A stretch of 24,000 nucleotides of DNA from an uncultured Bacteroides sp. (GCA_963676865.2 CAXXSS010000001.1:477378-501377); one strand, 5' to 3'. Counted from the first letter of the stretch, positions 2,367 through 13,065 are shown. The notes: generated by a model not told the origin, from the letters alone. Program-made: numbers and translations.

Positions 2367-2480
2367 GTTACCGCCGTAACTAACGGATGTCGCAGACGAA
2401 ACTAACGTTAGTTATCATGATAACTTCTGTTAGTTACCGCAGTAACTTCCCTTAGTTATAGTAGAAACATACGTTAGTTT
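2367..2480. repeat. 22-bp-phased array of TTAGTT / AACTAA half-sites (iteron- or operator-like)
   Basis: TTAGTT starts at 2408, 2430, 2452 and 2474, exactly 22 bp apart. The complementary WAACT starts at 2377, 2399, 2421 and 2443, also 22 bp apart. A 14-bp perfect palindrome aactaacgttagtt lies at 2400-2413. gttaccgcNgtaact occurs at 2367 and 2433 (66 bp = 3x22). Confidence 0.75.
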
Positions 2481-2784
2481 CTAGAGCAAGAATAAAAACT
2501 TACAAACAAGACACACTTTATGCCCAGAGGAGTTTTTTGGTCAAATTCTAGAAAAGACGTAAATCTGTCCATTTTCAGCTTTTTATGTACTATCATCATT
2601 CACATAAATCGAATGTATTAGCATCAAATAGATTGCATAATATCAGTTTCATAAACTATTTGAAATAATAGCCAAAACGCAACTTTTAGAGAAGAAGCGG
2701 CAAATTTCAAAAAAGCACAAAAAAACTCCTTTTTCCGAAAATCGCAGTTACAATATACTACCGCTTCGAAAATCGACATGCCCT

Positions 2785-2945
2785 TGTCGCATGTGTCGCA
2801 TAGGATTCCCTCCTCTTATATTTTTTTTATTTTTTATTTTTATGTAATCATATTTCATGTAATTACAGTGTCATAATGATAAACGTATTATACACCAATA
2901 AAAAAAATATAGAGTTTATAGGATTTCTATGCGACACATGCGACA
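2785..2945. repeat. Perfect 19-bp inverted repeat pair flanking a 123-bp AT-rich segment (candidate invertible element or TIR-bounded mini-element)
   Basis: 2785-2803 tgtcgcatgtgtcgcatag is the exact reverse complement of 2927-2945 ctatgcgacacatgcgaca. Each arm contains an internal direct repeat, GTCGCAT-GT-GTCGCAT. Confidence 0.8.
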
Positions 2946-3061
2946 TTTTCAGTAATCTTTCACAACACAAAACGATTTTCACCAGATTTCCTATCCTTAT
3001 GCACTTCATCCAATTACACGTATATACTTTAAATGAATGTTACCTTTATCTTTCGAAAACC

Positions 3062-3099
3062 ACGTATGGACCTAAAAATATTGAGGTCCATACGTTTTC
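3062..3099 (+). terminator. Rho-independent terminator-like hairpin
   Basis: A 12-bp perfect stem pairs acgtatggacct (3062-3073) with aggtccatacgt (3084-3095) around a 10-nt loop. A T-run (tttt) follows immediately. No annotated CDS ends here. Confidence 0.5.
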
Positions 3100-3292
3100 T
3101 GAGAAACTTAAGGGCGTCACAAAAAAACTAACATATGACACCACTACACCTCCGCATCTATCGAAGACCATTTACGTGTATGTGGAAGATCGTTTCAGGC
3201 AATTGGTACAGCTTAATTTCTCGTTCAATAATGATAGTAGTAAGGAAGAGAAATAAACCTTTTTGTATTAATGTGTTAAGAAATACTCAACA

Positions 3293-3325
3293 TTTCATTA
3301 TTGTGTGTTTTTTTCATTAACTTTG
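3293..3325 (+). promoter_or_regulatory. Candidate Bacteroides-type promoter for the TIR-like/caspase-like operon
   Basis: taactttg at 3318-3325 fits the Bacteroides -7 consensus TAnnTTTG. A weak -33-like tttc sits at 3293-3296. The ATG at 3356 is 31 nt downstream. Confidence 0.35.
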
Positions 3326-3355
3326 TCATGTAACAAACTAAATACATTCAGATTT

Positions 3356-3718
3356 ATGAAAACTATTTTTATTGCTTTCGCTATTGAAGACGAAAGACAG
3401 CGTGATTTATTAAAAGGTCAATCTCTGTTAACAAATTCACCTTTTGAATATGTAGATATGTCTGTAAAACAGGCTTATGACACAGACTGGAAAAATAAAG
3501 TTAGAACAAGGATTAAACGTTCTGACGGGATAATTGTACTGATAAGCAAAAATTCCCTAAAATCGTCCGGTCAAAAGTGGGAAATTCAATGTGCAAAAGA
3601 AGAGGGTAAAAGAATATTAGGAATTTGGGCATACTCTGACGATAGAACCAATATTGTAGGAGTCAATACACGAGCATGGTCTTGGGATCATATTAAAGAC
3701 TTTATAAACTCTCTATAA
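3356..3718 (+). CDS. Small TIR-like domain protein (DUF1863 / MTH538 TIR-like type)
   Basis: The pattern MKTIFIAFAIEDE..(loop)..RIKRSDGIIVLISKNSLKSSGQKWEIQCAKEEGKRILGIW follows the flavodoxin-like TIR layout: beta-A FISF-type strand plus acidic residues, a second strand, and an S-x-W-x-x-E-type helix with a conserved Glu (W75-E76 counted from the ATG at 3356). The upstream GTG at 3305 is an unlikely start. The stop lies 2 nt before the next ATG. Confidence 0.6.
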   Translation: MKTIFIAFAIEDERQRDLLKGQSLLTNSPFEYVDMSVKQAYDTDWKNKVRTRIKRSDGIIVLISKNSLKSSGQKWEIQCAKEEGKRILGIWAYSDDRTNIVGVNTRAWSWDHIKDFINSL

Positions 3719-3720
3719 AT

Positions 3721-4695
3721 ATGAAGATAGCATTAGTCGTTGGGATAGATCACTATACTCATGGAGAAGATTTATTTGGATGTGTAAATGATGCGCATAG
3801 TGTTAGGAATGCTCTATCAAGGCATGCCGATAATTCTGTTAATTTCGATTGTATGTTGTTGGTCGCATCTTCAAGTAGAGATAGTATAGACCATGGGAGA
3901 CTTAAAGATGCTGTTGAAAAATTATTCTCTACGAAAGCTGAAATCGCATTATTCTATTTTGCAGGACATGGTCATATAGAAGCAACGGGGGGATATTTAT
4001 TAGCATCTGACGCTAAACGAGGAGATGACGGCTTGTCTTTGAATGAAGTTTTACTTTTGGCAAACAATTCACCTGCTACAAACAAAATTATAATATTGGA
4101 TAGCTGTCATTCAGGTATTGCGGGTAATCCGCCTAATATCAAAGATAATGCATTATTGTCAGAAGGAACAACTATACTTACAGCTTCAACGGAAGATCAA
4201 TATGCAAGTGAAAAAGATGGAAGTGGAGTATTTACGACACTTTTAGTTGACGCATTAAGTGGAGGTGCTGCAAATATACTTGGAGACATAACTCCAGGTA
4301 GTGTTTATGCACATATTGACCAATCCTTAGGAGCTTGGGAGCAAAGACCTGTTTTTAAATCAAATGTTAGAAATTTTGTATCATTAAGAAAAATAAAACC
4401 CTCAATACCTTTGGACGATTTAAGGAAAATAGCTATATTGTTTCCCTCTCCAGGTTATAAATACGAATTAAATCCCACATTTGAGCCTGAAATGAAGGGC
4501 CGAGATGCTGGAATGCCAGAGCCAATAAAGGAAAATACCGAAGTGTTTGCTATATTGCAAAAATACAATCGGTTGGGATTATTACTGCCTGTTAATGCCC
4601 CTCATATGTGGAATGCGGCAATGGAATATAGATCTTGTAAACTAACAGTTCTTGGTGAGCATTACAGAAGATTAGTAGAAAAAGGAAGATTATAA
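3721..4695 (+). CDS. Caspase-like cysteine protease (peptidase C14 / caspase-HetF fold) with about 120-aa C-terminal extension
   Basis: KIALVVGIDHY..GCVNDA opens the domain. The His-Cys dyad motifs are FYFAGHGH (His83, codon 3967-3969) and IIILDSCHSGIAG (Cys129, codon 4105-4107), in canonical order and spacing. No signal peptide. The C-terminal region (about residues 205-324) was not recognised. Confidence 0.8.
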   Translation: MKIALVVGIDHYTHGEDLFGCVNDAHSVRNALSRHADNSVNFDCMLLVASSSRDSIDHGRLKDAVEKLFSTKAEIALFYFAGHGHIEATGGYLLASDAKRGDDGLSLNEVLLLANNSPATNKIIILDSCHSGIAGNPPNIKDNALLSEGTTILTASTEDQYASEKDGSGVFTTLLVDALSGGAANILGDITPGSVYAHIDQSLGAWEQRPVFKSNVRNFVSLRKIKPSIPLDDLRKIAILFPSPGYKYELNPTFEPEMKGRDAGMPEPIKENTEVFAILQKYNRLGLLLPVNAPHMWNAAMEYRSCKLTVLGEHYRRLVEKGRL

Positions 4696-4701
4696 TAATT
4701 G

Positions 4702-4733
4702 AAAAAAGTAGCGGTTTCTTTGCTACTTTATTT
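4702..4733 (+). terminator. Weak terminator-like hairpin after the caspase-like gene
   Basis: aaagtagc (4705-4712) pairs with gctacttt (4722-4729) around a 9-nt loop. It has an A-run before and tttattt after. The stem is AT-rich, so it is weak. Confidence 0.35.
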
Positions 4734-5083
4734 CCCGCCTAAGTTCACGAAAGAAAGTAGCTGGAAGGGAGTTCCGTGCGGTGTAGATTACAGTTCCAGA
4801 AAGCTATCAATATCACATTCTAATATAACGGTCTACGTCGGGTGTAGAGACCGCTTTCCGCTGTTGCCTCAACGGCTTTCTTTTCACAGCATTAGCCCAA
4901 AGATCGGACATAATGCGACTCGAGTAGGGATATTACTTTGAAGCGAATCTTCATGCTACTAGCAAACACTTTATAGGAATTCGATTATCAACATAGGAAC
5001 AGGGACTCTCCTCATCGTTTCCTGTTTTTATCAACTATTGATGTCTATAAAAAACAATAGAACGACTTAAAAAGAAACAGATA

Positions 5084-5120
5084 TTTGAGCGATGAACATC
5101 GTAAAAAAGATATATCTTTG
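5084..5120 (+). promoter_or_regulatory. Candidate Bacteroides-type promoter for the 451-aa gene
   Basis: tatctttg at 5113-5120 matches TAnnTTTG. tttg at 5084-5087 is a possible -33 element, though the spacing is somewhat longer than the usual 19-21 bp. Start codons follow at 5151 and 5187. Confidence 0.35.
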
Positions 5121-5150
5121 TATTCACATCTGCTGATTGAATGAGGGTGG

Positions 5151-6506
5151 ATGAGATATGTTACACCTCTAATCTTAAGAGACAAAATGGATTACATTTT
5201 AATTAAAAAAATAAATGGTTATAATAATTTAGAACAATTCGGTTTAACCATCTTACAAAGTACTATTGCAAGCTTTCTATCCTGCGAAGTTAAAATATTC
5301 ACGAATCCATTACTCGAACTTCAAGCTTATAATATAAATATTCTGGAGAATGAAAATAGAGGTTTCTATCCTTTAGATGATGATAATATCATCGTTTTAG
5401 GGCGAATTATGAGCGATGATAGAACACTGATATCTTCATTAGGTATAAAGCTGTCAAAAAAGGGCATTAAGTATTCTGGGAATTTTCTCACTAAACTCGA
5501 AGGGGCACTAACTCACACATTAACGCAAGAGTATAACAATCATTTTGGGAACTGTAAATATTCACTAGGTGATGAACTAATATTGCATACCATTTGCAAC
5601 TACGTATCAAAGGGTGGATATGACAATCGACTGATAAGACATCTAATCAGCATATTCCAAAAGTTGAGAACAACTTCTTTTGAAGGCAGCTTTTTCAGCA
5701 CAGGTTTAATTCTTACAAAGTCTCATTATGCTTATAATAAAAATGATAGATTCGGAAGTTCATATAGCTTGAAACGCCCCTTTTCTTTAGCAAATCAATG
5801 CCAAATAGAAAGACGCATTTGGTATCTTGTCGATGGCAAGAAAACATTCTTCATGTGCAACAAATCATTGTTTGTTGACCAAATATTTGTTTTAGACAAA
5901 GAATATCAAGAAGCGAACTATATCGATAGCCACACATTAGCAAAAAGCTTAAAAGGGGCTGATCTGCTATTTAAAGTGGAAAATGAAAAATCATTTTCTA
6001 TCATAAATACTGCAAACATTGAAATAAGCTACATAGAAAATCAATGGAAATTTAGAGACTACACCTATATTAGAAAGTTATTTCTAGCTCATTTTAATAA
6101 TCCGGACATCGTAGAGAGTATCTTATTTTTCATTATATATTGCTCGAAGAACGCTATTAGTTCTATTATATGGTTACCCGAAAAGATCGATCAAATTGAA
6201 GATTTATTGAAAAAGAAAACGATGAATAGGTTTATAAAGAAGCCCATTTCGATAATGGATAAATCATTTACGAATCACATTATCAGATATCTTTCTAGTG
6301 ACGGAGCAACTATTATTGATAAAAATGGGTTATTACAATACTTTGGCTGCATCATTGACTTAAATAAAATTGAAGTCAAAGGCATTAAAGGTACTGGTGA
6401 GAGCGCTGCCGGTGCTTTATCTGCGAATGGAATTTCTTTGAAGATATCGCAAGATGGAACGATAAAACTGTTCGAGAAGAGAAAGAGTAGACCGTTACTT
6501 ATATAA
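5151..6506 (+). CDS. Hypothetical protein with C-terminal DisA_N / diadenylate-cyclase (DAC)-like motif pattern
   Basis: Long AT-rich ORF with coding-like composition; an alternative start is the Met at 5187. The C-terminus SSIIWLP..HIIRYLSSDGATIIDKNGLL..GIKGTGESAAGALSANGISLKISQDGTIKLF parallels the DAC pattern GALIV..HDGAvII..G-i..GTRHRAA..vivVSEEtG-IS. DGA (Asp384-Ala386, nt 6300-6308) is kept, but RHR is replaced by GES (nt 6396-6404). The N-terminal about 330 aa was not recognised. Confidence 0.6.
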   Translation: MRYVTPLILRDKMDYILIKKINGYNNLEQFGLTILQSTIASFLSCEVKIFTNPLLELQAYNINILENENRGFYPLDDDNIIVLGRIMSDDRTLISSLGIKLSKKGIKYSGNFLTKLEGALTHTLTQEYNNHFGNCKYSLGDELILHTICNYVSKGGYDNRLIRHLISIFQKLRTTSFEGSFFSTGLILTKSHYAYNKNDRFGSSYSLKRPFSLANQCQIERRIWYLVDGKKTFFMCNKSLFVDQIFVLDKEYQEANYIDSHTLAKSLKGADLLFKVENEKSFSIINTANIEISYIENQWKFRDYTYIRKLFLAHFNNPDIVESILFFIIYCSKNAISSIIWLPEKIDQIEDLLKKKTMNRFIKKPISIMDKSFTNHIIRYLSSDGATIIDKNGLLQYFGCIIDLNKIEVKGIKGTGESAAGALSANGISLKISQDGTIKLFEKRKSRPLLI

Positions 6507-6642
6507 TAAATAATTGAGAGTTTCAGCCACCACAGACCATCTTTTTCAGGAAAGCTTTTTGGACAGAATTATCCATTCTCCAGGTCGCTTTAAGCTAAAA
6601 AGTGATAGTTTATAAAAGGGATAGCTACACTTGCCTACGATA

Positions 6643-7323
6643 TCAAAATGAATTAGAGAGAGTAATTAAAAAGTGGACTGATATCATCGTTTTGGATATC
6701 TCCCCGCTATTTTCACACACCTTTTGGGTCAGCTCCGGAGCAATGCCGTTCAGCAGAATGCTGTCGAATTGAGTTTCGTTAATAATACCCGTCACCTCAA
6801 AATAGGCGGTATTGAATCCTGTAAGATTGCCATTCTCGTCTTGAGTATAGAAAATACCTCGTAGAATATCCTTGTATTGGAAGTTGATGGTTACCTCGCC
6901 CAGTTTCTCATTGAATGTAATCAGAAATACGTCGTCCCAATCTTCCCACACATTGTTAATCACTCTAGCATGAGTTATCTAGAATTCATTCCCTGTGGCA
7001 GAGATACGATTATATTTGAGTTCCGACATTTCAAGGTATTCATCAATACTCAGATTCTTCATTTGGGCATTACCATCTACACGCAGATCGCCTGTAATTG
7101 TGCATCCAGCTCTGTCGAACTTCTTTCCAACTCGCTCGGCAGACCATCCACCTACTCCAACGGGTGGATATGTTTCTCCGTTCCAATAGCCTTTTTAGTT
7201 CCGCGCCCGACACTTTAAGCGTAGCATCGGGATCGGACAATCCATCACAAACTCGAACTGATTGAACCCATGTTCGACTACCGACTTAGCACTCTGTAGG
7301 CTTTTTATGTGTACTTCACTCAT
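6643..7323 (-). pseudogene. Frameshifted/interrupted phage-tail-like gene remnant
   Basis: Three minus-strand reading-frame pieces follow one another. They are MSEVHIKSLQ..(stop); KGYWNGETYPPVGVGGWSAERVGKKFDRAGCTITGDLRVDGNAQMKNLSIDEYLEMSELKYNRISATGNEF(stop); and MINNVWEDWDD.. (6643-6963). The stretch is richer in G+C than the adjacent AT-rich genes. The phage tail-fibre flavour is an impression only. Confidence 0.45.
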
Positions 7324-7362
7324 TATTTATCAATTAGATAGTGAAAGTACAAGCCGATTGAT

Positions 7363-7370
7363 TAACTTTG
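7363..7370 (+). promoter_or_regulatory. Candidate -7 box upstream of the PLD-nuclease cassette
   Basis: taactttg at 7363-7370 matches TAnnTTTG, 19 nt before the ATG at 7389. No clear -33 TTTG was seen. Confidence 0.3.
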
Positions 7371-7388
7371 TGGAAACTTTGTCTTGTT

Positions 7389-8453
7389 ATGTACATCATT
7401 GATAATATTACAGGAAATAATCATTATGCTGAAATCGAAAAGCTGGCTTCGATTTCGGATGAACTTGTTATTGTTAGTCCATTTTGTTTCGATGATTTTG
7501 GTGATTTTTTTGATCGAATCGTATCAAAGTCAAATATAAAATCAATAAAGTTGATAACGACATTACGAGATGATGAAGTCATTAGCAAAATAACTTCTAT
7601 ACTGTCATTTAATAAAGAATCAGATAAGCACAATATTAATAGTAGTATATTTGTAAACAACTATTTGCATGGTAAAGTTTATCTATTTAAGAATAATTCG
7701 ATTAATACACACGTAATTATTACTTCAGCGAATATAACGTACAATGGATTGAATAAAAATCATGAGTGGGGATATTGTTTATCTGACACTACTGAAATCA
7801 ATAATCTCGAAAAAAGCATACTAAGAACAATTGAATACGAATTATCAGATAGCATTATTAATCAAATTAAAGATAGGATTGATGCATGGAAAAGCAAAAA
7901 TCCAGACTACAGACCACCTAAATCGCCTAAAATAGAAACGGCTGATATTATTTTGTCAGAAACACACAAAATCAATATCCCTGATTCGATAAAAATATTT
8001 CTAAAACCTGTTGGTACAAAAGAAGATCCTATCATTAAACGTGATTTTTCAGATGAAACAAAACAATATTTCGCAAAAAGACCTAAAGCCATTCATAAAG
8101 ATGATATATTGATATCATACGCTGTTGGAAGAAAGAATATAGTTTCTGCATTTAGAGTCTTAAGCAATCAGCCTATAAAAAGAGAAGCTGATCGATGGCC
8201 TTGGTTTGTTGACGTTGAGAATATTACACCATATTATGGGAAATGTTGGTTTGAAAAACATCTGCATATTACTAATATCAAAAACACATACTTAGGATTA
8301 ACAAATAATTCTCCAATTACTAATAAAGGAGGGATTACTTACGGGTCATTAAGTAGAGGAGGGGATAAACTTTGTCTTGACAAAGGTTATGCTTTATATA
8401 TATTATCAGTAGTGTTAACTGAGGAGAAAAATATTTATGAAAACAAGATTTGA
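7389..8453 (+). CDS. PLD-superfamily (single HKD motif) nuclease with PUA/EVE-like C-terminal domain
   Basis: The HxK(x)4D..SAN motif LHGKVYLFKNNSINTHVIITSANITYNGLNKNHEWG (His94 codon 7668-7670, Lys96) occurs once. A single copy is the Nuc/BfiI-type arrangement, in which the protein acts as a homodimer. The C-terminal IFLKPVG..KRPKAIHKDDILISYAVGRKNIVSAFRVLS..RWPWFVDVENI resembles the beta-barrel pattern of EVE/ASCH/PUA-like domains (weak call). The TTG at 7368 in the ORF track is a less likely start than the ATG at 7389. Confidence 0.7.
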   Translation: MYIIDNITGNNHYAEIEKLASISDELVIVSPFCFDDFGDFFDRIVSKSNIKSIKLITTLRDDEVISKITSILSFNKESDKHNINSSIFVNNYLHGKVYLFKNNSINTHVIITSANITYNGLNKNHEWGYCLSDTTEINNLEKSILRTIEYELSDSIINQIKDRIDAWKSKNPDYRPPKSPKIETADIILSETHKINIPDSIKIFLKPVGTKEDPIIKRDFSDETKQYFAKRPKAIHKDDILISYAVGRKNIVSAFRVLSNQPIKREADRWPWFVDVENITPYYGKCWFEKHLHITNIKNTYLGLTNNSPITNKGGITYGSLSRGGDKLCLDKGYALYILSVVLTEEKNIYENKI

Positions 8454-9249
8454 AGAATGGATTAAGCGAATAGATATGGCTTGTGAAGCTATGGAACAAG
8501 TCGGTCAAACATATAATGGAGCTAAAAATGTTCCAAAGGAGCAATTCGTATTCCTTGATCTCCTAAAGAGGATAAAAGCGAATTTGAAAGGCTGTAGAGA
8601 TATGTTATTCGAGTTAACTAAACTCGATCCTGAAAAGGATAATTTTGAAAAGAAAATACCTCTATCTATTTTGCTACGGTCATGCCTTGCAGATGCTATG
8701 GTAGGCATGTATCTGGCACCATTGACCAAACAAGAGTTCGCAGAAGAACTTGATGTTATAAATCTTGATTTCGTACGGTATATGGGATCAATGATTCCAT
8801 TGGAAATCGAGCTGTATAACCGTCTGTCAGGAGAGAAAATAAACACTCAAGAGGAATTGGATATCAGGTATGACGAATTTTCTCGATTCTTATCATCAGA
8901 TAAGGGGAAACCGTGGACATACCATAAGGCATCGGTATTTAGAGGAGATAAAACGAATAACAAGAAAGTCGATTTTACATTTATACGGAAAAAATTGATA
9001 GAAAGTGAGATAGAGACACAAGCGTTTGCCTATATGTACAACTATTATCGTTATTATTCCCAATACGAGCATTTCACTTCCTTTGGCAGAGAAATCTGGA
9101 ATACCGAATTTGCGGAAGAGATTACTCGAATGGAGATGTCGCTTATATCTGTAATACATTCTTGTTACCTTATAGCTAAAAAATTACCAAAAGCTACGGA
9201 CGCTTTATTGAATCCATTCGTAGTGGTTATAAACTCCATTGTGCCATAA
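8437..9249 (+). CDS. Hypothetical, mostly helical protein, translationally coupled to the PLD nuclease (possible HEPN-like Rx6H motif)
   Basis: The ATG at 8437 overlaps the upstream stop (8451-8453) by 17 nt. There is no signal peptide. The only motif noted is YYRYYSQYEHF (R-x6-H) near the C-terminus, which is compatible with HEPN Rx4-6H but not diagnostic. Confidence 0.6.
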   Translation: MKTRFEEWIKRIDMACEAMEQVGQTYNGAKNVPKEQFVFLDLLKRIKANLKGCRDMLFELTKLDPEKDNFEKKIPLSILLRSCLADAMVGMYLAPLTKQEFAEELDVINLDFVRYMGSMIPLEIELYNRLSGEKINTQEELDIRYDEFSRFLSSDKGKPWTYHKASVFRGDKTNNKKVDFTFIRKKLIESEIETQAFAYMYNYYRYYSQYEHFTSFGREIWNTEFAEEITRMEMSLISVIHSCYLIAKKLPKATDALLNPFVVVINSIVP

Positions 9250-9303
9250 GATTCTCATTTTGATTATGCAGGACAAAGTTTTTTCAAGATAAAAGTATTA
9301 GAT

Positions 9304-10230
9304 ATGAATAAAATTAATAATCATTTTCCCGTTAATATATTGCTTCCAAATGCATCGCAGTTGTTTGAAATTCTATGTGATAAATATGAATTAACAAACA
9401 ACTTTGATAATGGTCTAAGTAAGAAATTAAAAAATGTATGTACAGACAATGCAATTAATGACATAGCTCAAATTCGTGAGCATTACGACAATGAAAATAT
9501 CAAGTATTATCAAATTGCTGTTTGGGAAAACTATTGCCAATTCTTATGGACAATATGCTATTCCTCAATGGTCTATATGGACGAACTTATTATAAAGCCA
9601 TTTCTTGATCCTAATATGAATCGTGATGATCTGCTACTGGAAAAAGCTACTAAGTTGTTTGAAGCCGGAATGAGTTTATTTCATTCTGATTCGACACTTC
9701 GTGCGAATATAAATGTGTTTTTTGAGTTGACAAATCCAATTGAAGACAAAGATGATAAATATGTGAAATCAGCAAACCTCTTATTTGAGGCAAGTCTGTG
9801 TTTTGTCTTATTTCATGAATATCATCATTTTAATTTGGGGCATATAGATAAAGAGCATGTCAAGAATGATGAGATTGAGGCTGATTTTTGTGCTTTTTTC
9901 TCTATGTATGGAGAGAAATCTCTTGAGAAAAGAAAATTCTCATCATTAGGTTGCATTATAGCCTTGTCTTCGCTGTTATTCGTAGATAATACATTAGATG
10001 GAGGAACGCATCCTGATCCTGATGATAGACTTAGTCTGATATTGAATAATATGGATGACTTAGACGAACAAGGGAAAGATTATTGCTATGGTATGGCCAC
10101 AACATTTTATAAAATGTGGGCATTTTATTATAAAGTAAAGGAAATCATACCAAAAGTAGATAAAGCTGAAAACTATAAAGAATATTTTAACATCATTCAA
10201 AAAGCTTTTAATGACTATAAAAAGAAATAG
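9304..10230 (+). CDS. HExxH zinc metalloprotease, Lit (peptidase U49)-like phage-exclusion protease candidate
   Basis: VLFHEYHHFNLGH (H171-E172-x-x-H175, nt 9814-9828) is followed by NDEIEADFCA and later GGTHPDPDDRL. As I recall it, E. coli e14 Lit (about 300 aa) has the same layout: HExxH, a downstream E-x-EAD, then THP..ER. The size (308 aa) agrees. The similarity is recalled from memory, not aligned. Confidence 0.55.
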   Translation: MNKINNHFPVNILLPNASQLFEILCDKYELTNNFDNGLSKKLKNVCTDNAINDIAQIREHYDNENIKYYQIAVWENYCQFLWTICYSSMVYMDELIIKPFLDPNMNRDDLLLEKATKLFEAGMSLFHSDSTLRANINVFFELTNPIEDKDDKYVKSANLLFEASLCFVLFHEYHHFNLGHIDKEHVKNDEIEADFCAFFSMYGEKSLEKRKFSSLGCIIALSSLLFVDNTLDGGTHPDPDDRLSLILNNMDDLDEQGKDYCYGMATTFYKMWAFYYKVKEIIPKVDKAENYKEYFNIIQKAFNDYKKK

Positions 10231-10256
10231 CTGACACATCAATCTTAAAATTCTCT

Positions 10257-10621
10257 TTACCAAGAACACATACCAAATCTCTGACCTTGACCATCAATTG
10301 ACCGCTGAGAGCGATTTGTATATTCTAAGAACCAACTCCACCTACCATCATGCCCTGCAACTTGGATAGCGGGACAATCACTTCGGAATCGATACGGGGC
10401 CCACCATAGCATAAGTGGGGCCGCCTTGGCTAGTTTCGGAGCATTCTTTTGAGATTTTTGTTGATGAGCGCGGTCATCACAGCAATAACCACCATTGCAG
10501 CTCCGATAGCAATCACTGCCCATGGATTGGCAAGTACTGATTTGAGAGCCATCTTAAAAGCAATAATCATCACGCCAAACTCTATCAGTTGTGCGCCGAT
10601 CTGCTTGAGGAAACTCGCCAA
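10257..10621 (-). pseudogene. Remnant of a phage tape-measure-like gene (two frames)
   Basis: The minus-strand piece ..QIGAQLIEFGVMIIAFKMALKSVLANPWAVIAIGAAMVVIAVMTALINKN has a hydrophobic TMP-like segment and ends in a stop. The following sequence reads in another frame as GGPRIDSEVIVPLSKLQGMMVGGVGS.. There is no intact ORF. The stretch is richer in G+C than its neighbours. Confidence 0.4.
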
Positions 10622-10769
10622 TTATAAAAGGATAGCTTTCATCAATCCGTCAAAGCCCAAATCTCCGGCAATGATTTTCACACACCTTTAGGGACACTTT
10701 TTGGAGTCAAATAGTTGGTAGATATTCCGCTTCGGAATCGAATCTTATTAACTAACAATATGAGCAGGT

Positions 10770-11132
10770 TTAAAGACTAATATTGTATTCTTGCAAAAAG
10801 GCTAGAAGATATTCACGTCTTTTATTTCTTGCTTCTAGGCTCTGAACATCTCTACTTTGTGATAGGAATATAATATATGTGCCTATTGATAATCTTTTCC
10901 CAGCATCATTAGCAATGATGGTCTCTTCACTATCTGACCAGCCTATAATTCGGTAAACATTTAAACCCTCCGATTTAACCTTTTCAAGATGATATCCCAT
11001 CCATGGTAACGCTTCGTTGCAATAGTTTGATTTTTTAGTATCAAATCCCCAATAATAAGCTGTGTGTTGAAAGAAATTTATAATAACTTTAGGATTCATT
11101 TTTACCATCTCAGCATGGGTTACTTGTAACAT
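10770..11132 (-). CDS. Hypothetical protein (possibly 5'-truncated)
   Basis: 120-aa ORF. The frame stays open for 39 further codons upstream (TGKSIENEILDSLGNDARAKEHQKLFADYFKPFKDIKAK) without an ATG, which suggests a truncated larger gene. No motif recognised. Confidence 0.4.
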   Translation of the reverse strand: MLQVTHAEMVKMNPKVIINFFQHTAYYWGFDTKKSNYCNEALPWMGYHLEKVKSEGLNVYRIIGWSDSEETIIANDAGKRLSIGTYIIFLSQSRDVQSLEARNKRREYLLAFLQEYNISL

Positions 11133-11413
11133 TTTCGCTTTTATATCTTTGAAGGGCTTAAAATAATCAGCAAAAAGTTTTTGATGTTCTTTTGCTCGGG
11201 CATCATTGCCTAAAGAATCGAGAATCTCGTTTTCTATACTTTTACCTGTCTAAATTATTAATTGTTCTCACAAAGAGAAGCAACTTCCTATGAAAAGACA
11301 TATCATAGGTATAAGAAAAAACACTCAATTTTTCAAGTTAATAATCTTATGAACCAATTTGGCATAGACAAGAATTACATTTGCAAAAAGTTTAAGAAGT
11401 TATTTTGAATTTT

Positions 11414-11745
11414 TAGAATAATAATAAGAAGATGAAACTGTTTCGAGTTCTTTTACCCTTTTACTCTATTGCATACCGCAAAAATATTTCCAGATAGAGA
11501 CAACATGGAAGAAAGGATTTGCCGTATACGCCATCACCATTGTTTTTGCTCTGATGCACATCACGAATTATCCTTTCCACCTACCCTACCTGCCTGTTTA
11601 TTGCCTGCTCGTATTGCCTCAATTCATACTGGGCAGTACTCTTGTATATTTCCGATTAAACCTAGGATTCTTCTATGGATATGGCTTTCATGCGCTGATC
11701 AACTTAATAGGATTCGGCTTGATGCTATCCAAATTATTCTTATAA
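11414..11745 (+). pseudogene. CPBP (CAAX/Abi-type) intramembrane protease remnant, truncated and frameshifted
   Basis: Frame 1 reads ..AVYAITIVFALMHITNYP..FFYGYGFHALINLIGFG, carrying CPBP motifs 2 (FxxxH) and 3 (HxxxN). The N-terminal EExxxR motif is absent. A different frame starting at ATG 11432 gives MKLFRVLLPFY.., possibly a decayed ..LFR.. of motif 1, and ends in a stop. Confidence 0.5.
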
Positions 11746-11935
11746 AAGCGCCCTTATATTTCTCTAAACACCCAAGTATTTTATAGCAGTTTTAATTGAT
11801 CTTTCTACTACCGATAAGAATTTATCGTAACAACATTTATTTACAATATAATTTATCAATATTATTTCCATTTACTGATTGGAAATAAAACACTTGCTAT
11901 ACAAGCCTGACATTACATGAATAGCATATAAAAAA

Positions 11936-11969
11936 GAACCGAACATTAAAAAATGTTCGGTTCCCTTTT
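11936..11969 (-). terminator. Rho-independent terminator downstream of the OMP gene
   Basis: A 12-bp perfect stem pairs gaaccgaacatt (11936-11947) with aatgttcggttc (11952-11963) around a 4-nt loop. On the minus strand it is followed by a T-run (complement of aaaaaa at 11930-11935). It lies about 30 nt after the stop at 11994. Confidence 0.65.
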
Positions 11970-11993
11970 ATATGACTACTTTCTTATTACAAA

Positions 11994-12617
11994 TTAAAAT
12001 TTGTAACCAACGTTAATGCTAAAATTAGAATTATATACTTTAGCACTCTCTTGAACTTTAAGCAATCCAAGTTCAAAACTACCACCTACAAGAAATTTAC
12101 CGAATTCAAGCCCGGCTTCAAAATTCAAACCGGCATCGAAACGTTTCATTCCAGGGAAGGTTTCACCCTCAACCTGTTCATCATCGAAAGTATTCCAATC
12201 AATGCTGACCGTTTGACCCCCAGAAGTTCCACTTGCTTTCGTTTTCCCAAAAATGCCATATGCAATGTAAGGACCTGCAGCAACAGTTAGATTTGTTTTC
12301 TCGGCTACTTTGAAACGGAACTGCACGTCAAGAGGCATATCCAGAAACCAAGCATTGCGTTTCAGATCACCTCCATTAATATCATATTTAGCTCCTTTAT
12401 GAGATAGATACAAAGTCGGCTGTAAAGATATCATATCGCTCAGTGGATATTCAACACCAAAACCGACACGACCACCAACAAGAGTTTTAGACTCATCAGA
12501 GTCACTTCCATGAAAATTACTTAAATTAAAACTACCTTTCACGATCGGAGTGATTTGAGCAAACGAAACCACCGAAATAAAGGTGAAAAGCACCGCAAAT
12601 AAAATTGATTTTTTCAT
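11994..12617 (-). CDS. Small outer-membrane beta-barrel protein (OmpA-like/porin-family barrel)
   Basis: It has the signal peptide MKKSILFAVLFTFISVVSFAQ, alternating amphipathic beta-strand pattern rich in G/Y/F, and a C-terminal ..NVGYKF ending in Phe, as is typical for OMPs. Confidence 0.8.
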   Translation of the reverse strand: MKKSILFAVLFTFISVVSFAQITPIVKGSFNLSNFHGSDSDESKTLVGGRVGFGVEYPLSDMISLQPTLYLSHKGAKYDINGGDLKRNAWFLDMPLDVQFRFKVAEKTNLTVAAGPYIAYGIFGKTKASGTSGGQTVSIDWNTFDDEQVEGETFPGMKRFDAGLNFEAGLEFGKFLVGGSFELGLLKVQESAKVYNSNFSINVGYKF

Positions 12618-12655
12618 TTTAAAAATTTTAAATTAATAATTTATGTTGAACGCGA

Positions 12656-12663
12656 CAAATATA
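12656..12663 (-). promoter_or_regulatory. Candidate -7 box for the OMP gene
   Basis: The minus strand reads tatatttg (TAnnTTTG), 39 nt upstream of the ATG at 12617. No convincing -33 element was seen. Confidence 0.3.
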
Positions 12664-13065
12664 GTAAAAATTTACAACCAATTTTAAATATTTGGACTTA
12701 AATAAATTAAAAACATGCATTTTCTATTATTCCCTATACATACAACAAGCGAAACTATTTAATAGTTTATACAAAGCACTACATTCTACACACAAAAGAA
12801 TGCTTTCTTTACCTGCTCAAAGATATTGTACTTGCCGAAAAATAGGACTGAGACATTACGTACTCCATCGTATTATTATTGGGAGTCGGACGCCAAACAA
12901 AAGATAGTGCAATATCGCAACAAAGTGTTTGAACTCGCCTCTAGAGCAGACCTTGAGTGCTTTTTATTTGGTTCATAAGGTTATAAGTCCTATCTTTATC
13001 GGCAATTAAACTAATTATTAACCCTAACGGAGACTTGTCTCCGGCCAAAAAGCATTTAATACAAG

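Follow-up and report, generated by a model that had tools for sequence, protein, structure and literature searches.

The closest described systems are the type IV Thoeris operons, in which a TIR gene is paired with a gene for a caspase-like protease (Rousset et al., bioRxiv 10.1101/2024.10.24.620036; cited elsewhere as Science 387:510, 2025). The type was defined on PsTIR and PsCaspase of Pseudomonas sp. [quoted passage not shown] According to the same study, the system is present in many Bacteroidetes, including Bernardetia litoralis DSM 6794, many loci carry an additional TIR gene (both in Table S1), and PCaspase is reported to be an arginine-directed promiscuous protease, like the type IV effector (bioRxiv 10.1101/2024.10.24.620036). 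On the phage side, T4 counters type IV Thoeris with the sponge TadIV-1, and for T6, sensing depends on a capsid vertex protein in combination with further phage components (PMC13243611).

Here, we analysed a window of 24,000 nt from an uncultured Bacteroides sp. (GCA_963676865.2, CAXXSS010000001.1:477378-501377), the whole stretch of DNA to which all coordinates refer. A first-pass annotation, made from the sequence alone, had noticed a TIR-like gene followed by a gene for a caspase-fold protease and had proposed a TIR-signalling defence system of the Thoeris kind with a caspase-like effector, perhaps of a distinct or undescribed subtype. The first part of this proposal holds and the second does not. 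Both proteins are orthologous to the Pseudomonas sp. 1-7 pair, their catalytic residues are conserved and the synteny of the two genes extends across phyla. Judged from these comparisons, the pair is most probably (probability about 0.9) a canonical, intact type IV Thoeris (ThsB and ThsE), which would signal through N7-cADPR as in the published mechanism.

Architecture and identity of the gene pair

The two genes lie on the same strand (Table 1). The TIR gene was read from an ATG at 3356, internal to a longer ORF that ends at 3718 (stop codon 3716-3718), and its 120-aa product begins with MKTIFIAFAIED. A gap of 2 nt (3719-3720) separates it from the caspase-like ORF (3721-4695, 324 aa). The same 120-aa and 324-aa products were called independently on an identical contig from a metagenome, in agreement with the ORF list and with the layout first described.

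Table 1. Features of the gene pair and of the surrounding island, in window coordinates
Feature	Position	Strand	Basis or observation
Imperfect palindrome with 40-nt arms, at the left GC boundary	2398-2481		
Inverted repeat, 25 nt, 92% complementary	2785-2809 and 2921-2945		
126-aa AT-rich ORF just upstream of the TIR gene	2876-3256	+	112-aa gene call on the identical contig
TAACTTTG, TAnnTTTG box 31 nt before the thsB start codon, candidate Bacteroidota -7 promoter element	3318-3325	+	read in sequence
thsB, 120-aa single-domain TIR, predicted signal synthase, catalytic Glu76	3356-3718	+	Pfam, PADLOC, PsTIR homology
thsE, N-terminal caspase-like (Peptidase_C14) protease domain, residues 1 to ~215, His83/Cys129 dyad	3721-4365	+	Pfam, PADLOC, AF2, Foldseek
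thsE, conserved C-terminal domain, residues ~222-324 plus stop codon, presumed N7-cADPR sensor	4384-4695	+	PsCaspase alignment, family conservation
Stem-loop, 6 nt after the thsE stop, possible transcription terminator	4701-4734	+	MFE -12.2 kcal/mol, z -2.95 (200 shuffles)
Stretch with no called gene	4735-5150		GC ~0.39-0.40
Terminator-like hairpin	4860-4876		terminator scan
TAnnTTTG box of the 451-aa protein gene	5113-5120		
451-aa protein, directly downstream of the Thoeris pair	5151-6506	+	
Stretch with no called gene	6507-7388		GC ~0.39-0.40
106-aa ORF within the preceding stretch	6643-6963	-	not called on the identical contig
PLD-family nuclease	7389-8453	+	Pfam RE_NgoFVII 1.2e-8, PLDc_2; PADLOC ZacB- and DrmC-like
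270-aa protein, start overlapping the PLD nuclease end by 17 nt	8437-9249	+	no family match
308-aa Lit-like peptidase	9304-10230	+	PADLOC Lit, E 3.1e-11

The small protein falls within the TIR/DUF1863 fold family, as had been supposed: it matched Pfam ThsB_TIR (PF08937) with 41.7 bits, above the cut-off of 21.2 (E 1.6e-10), and the PADLOC ThsB model (E 1.2e-8); a search of its sequence against the PDB gave no significant match (best 8wcf 'Tir', E 0.2). The first-pass annotation had placed it in the DUF1863/MTH538 type rather than with canonical ThsB, which is a false dichotomy since PF08937 is now named ThsB_TIR. Some homologues (P0277, P0305 and P0363), at 93% and 89% identity to PsTIR, bear the JGI label 'MTH538 TIR-like domain (DUF1863)'. 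For direct comparison, PsTIR was translated from the cloned Pseudomonas sp. 1-7 operon given in Table S2 (bioRxiv 10.1101/2024.10.24.620036), and a database search with it recovered the exact protein as JF55_15340 of Pseudomonas sp. 1-7. The window TIR is 69% identical to PsTIR over 119 aa with no gap (E 6e-64), and its E76, which aligns with PsTIR E79, is invariant in 69/69 TIR homologues of the fetched loci.

The downstream protein matched Pfam Peptidase_C14 over residues 2-214 with 59.6 bits, the cut-off being 21.4 (E 4.8e-16), and the PADLOC 'caspase' model (E 2.2e-17). Its His/Cys dyad is intact, as first read: His83 stands in the motif AGH83G and Cys129 in DSC129H, and a family alignment of 79 sequences shows each of the two residues conserved to at least 90%. 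PsCaspase (328 aa) was taken from the genomic locus beside JF55_15340 in the Pseudomonas sp. 1-7 assembly. By BLASTP, the window protease shares with it 56% identity and 75% similarity from end to end (residues 1-322 against 1-326, E 3e-143), with a single gap of 4 residues in the C-terminal region and with C129 aligned to C129. Both window ORFs are full length relative to the references (120 vs 123 aa and 324 vs 328 aa), with no frameshift or internal stop, and a caspase of B. litoralis (Fleli_2347) is 79% identical to the window protease.

The C-terminal part of the protease had been described as an unrecognised tail that could act as the ligand sensor. This tail aligns with the C-terminus of PsCaspase, so that the window protease and the reference effector share one domain; all family members have it as their conserved C-terminal domain, and the family alignment shows conserved positions at F241, L250, E255, L287, P290, A300, C306, L308, T309, G312 and Y315. 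Its presumed role as sensor coincides with the hypothesis of the type IV Thoeris authors. An AF2 model of the full effector (pLDDT 97.1) was compared with solved structures by Foldseek, and a caspase-like fold was predicted for the N-terminal ~215 residues, the best matches (11-21% identity, E from 3.7e-13 upwards) being MALT1 paracaspase, caspases, yeast metacaspase and GSU0716. These were generic caspase, paracaspase and metacaspase folds, with no solved type IV effector among them; searched by sequence, the protease matched nothing in the PDB at E up to 0.01, and neither the sequence nor the fold searches of the PDB yielded a solved structure of the effector family. Modelled alone (residues 222-324, pLDDT 96.2), the C-terminal domain had no match in a fold search against the PDB at E up to 0.001, and the best matches were winged-helix proteins (MarR, PadR, small ribosomal; E 0.025-0.5, TM ~0.45-0.5, the top one at E 0.025 and TM 0.47), a weak resemblance of the model from which we claim no fold assignment.

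The published detection rule for type IV Thoeris asks for a caspase-family protein and a PF08937 or PF13676 match with at most one gene between them (bioRxiv 10.1101/2024.10.24.620036), and, applied by proxy, this rule selects the window pair. The family is further recognised by a short single-domain TIR matching PF08937 (ThsB) or PF13676 (TIR_2), which here is the 120-aa PF08937 protein; by the catalytic residues required for defence (TIR Glu; caspase Cys and His), which here are E76, C129 and H83; and by conservation of the pair across genomes, considered below. Like its Pseudomonas sp. 1-7 counterpart, the window locus is a two-gene operon with the TIR first and the genes tightly coupled, by a gap of 2 nt in the window and by overlapping stop and start codons (TGATG) in Pseudomonas; it conserves the catalytic Glu, His and Cys, and it has the C-terminal domain in common. 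The two differ in their hosts (Pseudomonadota vs Bacteroidales), in codon and GC content, and in their neighbours; no structural or architectural difference was found between the Pseudomonas pair and the window copy. This direct comparison with PsTIR and PsCaspase leads us to reject the idea of a distinct subtype. The two features first thought unusual, the very small TIR and the protease tail, are hallmarks of the type IV family.

Other known systems share parts of this architecture. The ThsB TIR of type I Thoeris is also a PF08937 protein that makes an NAD-derived signal activating an effector, but that effector is the SIR2-SLOG NADase ThsA, activated by 3'cADPR, whereas the gene adjoining the window TIR encodes a Peptidase_C14 protein; no SIR2 or SLOG match was found in the scanned window ORFs, and membership in type I was discarded. 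The Peptidase_C14 fold and the His/Cys dyad are common to the gasdermin-activating CHAT/caspase, type III CRISPR PCaspase and EACC1-associated caspase systems, but these have neither the type IV C-terminal domain nor the TIR partner. Assignment to the EACC1-associated caspases (NCBIfam NF047832) was likewise discarded, at 97.3 bits against a cut-off of 140 bits and with residues 4-203 only covered, and beyond this sub-threshold caspase domain model no NCBIfam model matched the TIR or the protease. A gasdermin- or CRISPR-linked caspase system was also set aside: the neighbouring ORFs that were scanned, namely those for the 451-aa protein, the PLD nuclease, the 270-aa protein and the Lit-like peptidase, gave no gasdermin, cas or SAVED-CHAT match above noise.

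Conservation of the pair and its TIR partners

The effector family is large, with at least 7983 clusters at 90% identity (E up to 1e-3); at E up to 1e-30, it counts 449 representatives at 50% identity, nearly all of 310-340 aa and matching from end to end. We scanned one genome per species with an 11-sequence alignment as query and, of the 542 relatives found, kept the best 80. Their identities are 60-80%, and they are spread over Bacteroidota, Pseudomonadota, Acidobacteriota, Cyanobacteria, Bacillota, Patescibacteria and Planctomycetota, with one archaeon. Among these best 80 of 542, a TIR gene lies directly upstream on the same strand in 74 loci; it is PsTIR-like in 65/80 and, in 9/80, like EcTIR, the second validated type IV TIR (~130-138 aa). 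In the remaining 6/80, no TIR was detected within 700 nt, one of these loci having just 55 nt of upstream sequence and another a TIR 2.3 kb upstream. The two genes thus co-occur in other genomes, as the proposed system had been expected to do.

None of the other genes of the window's island was found near the caspase in the 80 other species-representative genomes (best 80 of 542), which indicates a functional unit of two genes; the downstream genes, none of which co-occurs with the caspase in these genomes, were accordingly rejected as parts of the system. At the DNA level, copies with 65-68% identity to the operon occur on plasmids from Shewanella, Klebsiella and E. coli, the match covering 92% of the query for those from Shewanella and Klebsiella. 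These plasmid copies are annotated 'TIR domain-containing protein | caspase family protein', and the plasmids of Enterobacteria and Shewanella are conjugative.

For a defence protein, the effector is unusually conserved: across phyla it retains 60-80% identity over its full length (loci L002-L081, best 80 of 542), reaching 69% in the archaeon BMS3Abin16, and its length is almost fixed at 324 aa. Conservation of this degree implies that the protein is strongly constrained and has often been transferred horizontally.

A further observation concerns the TIR partner. Caspases that are 62-77% identical to that of the window carry an EcTIR-like partner at nine loci (L004, L007, L029, L031, L032, L039, L043, L063 and L076), and a PsTIR-like one (~120 aa) elsewhere. 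The PsTIR-like and EcTIR-like families share 28% identity over 57 aa, so that the TIR partner has been exchanged, with the effector remaining almost unchanged. The type IV Thoeris of E. coli 328 (EcTIR and EcCaspase) has the same effector family and two-gene logic as the window pair, but EcTIR belongs to the other TIR family (~130-138 aa, motif FISHSW) and is 28% identical over 57 aa to the window TIR, which is of the PsTIR kind and not of the EcTIR kind.

This pattern bears on the possibility that the architecture is that of type IV but the chemistry is not, the TIR making another ADPR-derived signal (e.g. another cADPR isomer) to which the effector tail is tuned, which would amount to a functional subtype. 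Nearly identical caspases are paired with these two distant TIR families, TIR clusters that are close relatives can, according to the literature, be connected to different Thoeris effectors, the C-terminal domain differs from that of PsCaspase at roughly 45% of positions, and the references are just 56-69% identical, which leaves room for a changed signal specificity or phage trigger. Nevertheless, the identities to the references (TIR 69%, effector 56%) run over the full length and the conserved C-terminal positions are kept, and Ps and Ec TIRs have both been used as activator sources for PsCaspase (PMC13243611). This use of two divergent TIR families with one PsCaspase speaks for a signal set by the effector family, and we consider a change of chemistry improbable. 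It is similarly doubtful that the Bacteroidales copy, though orthologous, differs functionally, by responding to another phage trigger (gut Bacteroidales phages) or through a signal other than N7-cADPR read by the C-terminal domain.

Many bacterial TIR domains are NADase effectors (CBASS, Pycsar, TIR-pAgo), and the window TIR could by the same token deplete NAD+ itself, with the caspase-like protein as an unrelated neighbour or a sensor and no signalling between the two. The gene order speaks against this, the TIR being directly upstream across phyla in the 74 loci counted above, as does the orthology of both proteins to a pair with demonstrated signalling; we regard such an arrangement as very unlikely, and the pair is better read as type IV Thoeris.

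The AT-rich island and candidate regulatory elements

As the first-pass annotation had stated, the pair sits inside an AT-rich island (~2400-13000), where GC is 0.28-0.40 against 0.43-0.59 in the flanks. The flanking genes encode a GH31 protein, a beta-lactamase-fold protein, an OMP beta-barrel protein and an Mfa-type fimbrillin, a set that points to a Bacteroidales chromosome. The island showed no integrase, no tRNA (tRNA scan) and no convincing flanking direct repeats or attachment-site repeats (repeat search), and Rfam gave nothing at gathering thresholds across the whole window, nor at E-value thresholds in 4650-7420. An imperfect palindrome marks the left GC boundary, and a shorter inverted repeat follows it (Table 1).

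The regulatory elements first proposed for the pair stood in part. A TAnnTTTG box is present upstream of the TIR gene, but the motif is non-specific and is not in itself evidence for a promoter: the window holds 32 matches where 21.6 are expected, a mild enrichment that leaves the promoter assignment tentative. The TAACTTTG box is compatible with a Bacteroidota promoter, and a sigma-70 promoter scan was at chance level (12 found vs 12.3 expected). Downstream, the hairpin folds at -12.2 kcal/mol (Table 1), but its role as a terminator is tentative, the consensus terminator scan making no call at 4701-4734 because the T-run is weak.

One could take the operon for a decayed or silent remnant, given its AT-rich, apparently horizontally acquired island and the weak promoter and terminator assignments, but with full-length ORFs, all catalytic and family-invariant residues retained and an identical copy in an independent metagenome assembly, this is highly improbable.

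The island holds at least three or four defence-type modules. PADLOC, run on the window, gave ThsB and caspase matches for the pair and defence-type matches among its neighbours; the PLD nuclease and the Lit-like peptidase are such neighbours and count in favour of a defence reading of the type IV pair. The C-terminal half of the PLD nuclease had no family match. This gene and the overlapping gene for the 270-aa protein look, from their sequences, like a separate two-gene defence candidate. The Lit-like peptidase matched the NCBIfam model 'phage exclusion protein Lit' with E 1.4e-15, below the model cut-off, and is listed as Peptidase_U49 in the precomputed annotation of the identical contig; a Pfam scan returned nothing at E up to 0.01, a discrepancy probably due to a difference in Pfam version.

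Directly downstream of the Thoeris pair, with a TAnnTTTG box of its own, lies the gene for a 451-aa protein that had no match in Pfam, PADLOC, NCBIfam or PHROGs, nor in the PDB by sequence or profile. Its family is small (125 clusters, ~435-450 aa), occurs in Bacteroidota, Acinetobacter, Vibrio and Pectobacterium, and carries an invariant C-terminal motif, SSDGA..IID...G.KGTGESAA...NG.SIKISQDGTIK. Two members are labelled 'DAC domain-containing protein' in UniRef, and the family profile gave a weak KH-like match to PNPase (E 0.21). In Culturomica massiliensis, an 87% identical homologue is found between tyrosine integrases and a Mob_Pre relaxase. It may represent an undescribed protein, either a single-gene defence or cargo of mobile elements.

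The 126-aa ORF just upstream of the TIR gene had no family match except a sub-threshold TraQ (E 0.0096). Although additional TIR genes are described at many type IV loci, this ORF is not one of them. Two stretches of the island have no called gene and a GC content somewhat above that of the rest of the island; neither had an Rfam match at E up to 1, and they may be remnants of earlier island content.

Predicted mechanism and significance

By homology to the published system, the TIR would sense phage infection and, on infection, convert NAD+ to the cyclic nucleotide N7-cADPR. This signal would bind the caspase-like effector, probably via the C-terminal domain in a dimer, and the activated protease would then cleave many cellular proteins indiscriminately after arginine, EF-Tu included. 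The infected cell would die or arrest before the release of progeny phage, which would protect the population (abortive infection).

Altogether, the window most probably holds a further intact type IV Thoeris operon, located in a defence island of Bacteroidales and belonging to a family already catalogued in hundreds of genomes, Bacteroidetes among them. The finding is real and already known, and it opens no new question: the gaps in the mechanism, namely how the C-terminal domain reads N7-cADPR and how the TIR senses infection, are family-wide and are not more tractable through the window copy. Its use lies in the annotation of the present genome and in the mapping of defence islands in gut Bacteroidales.
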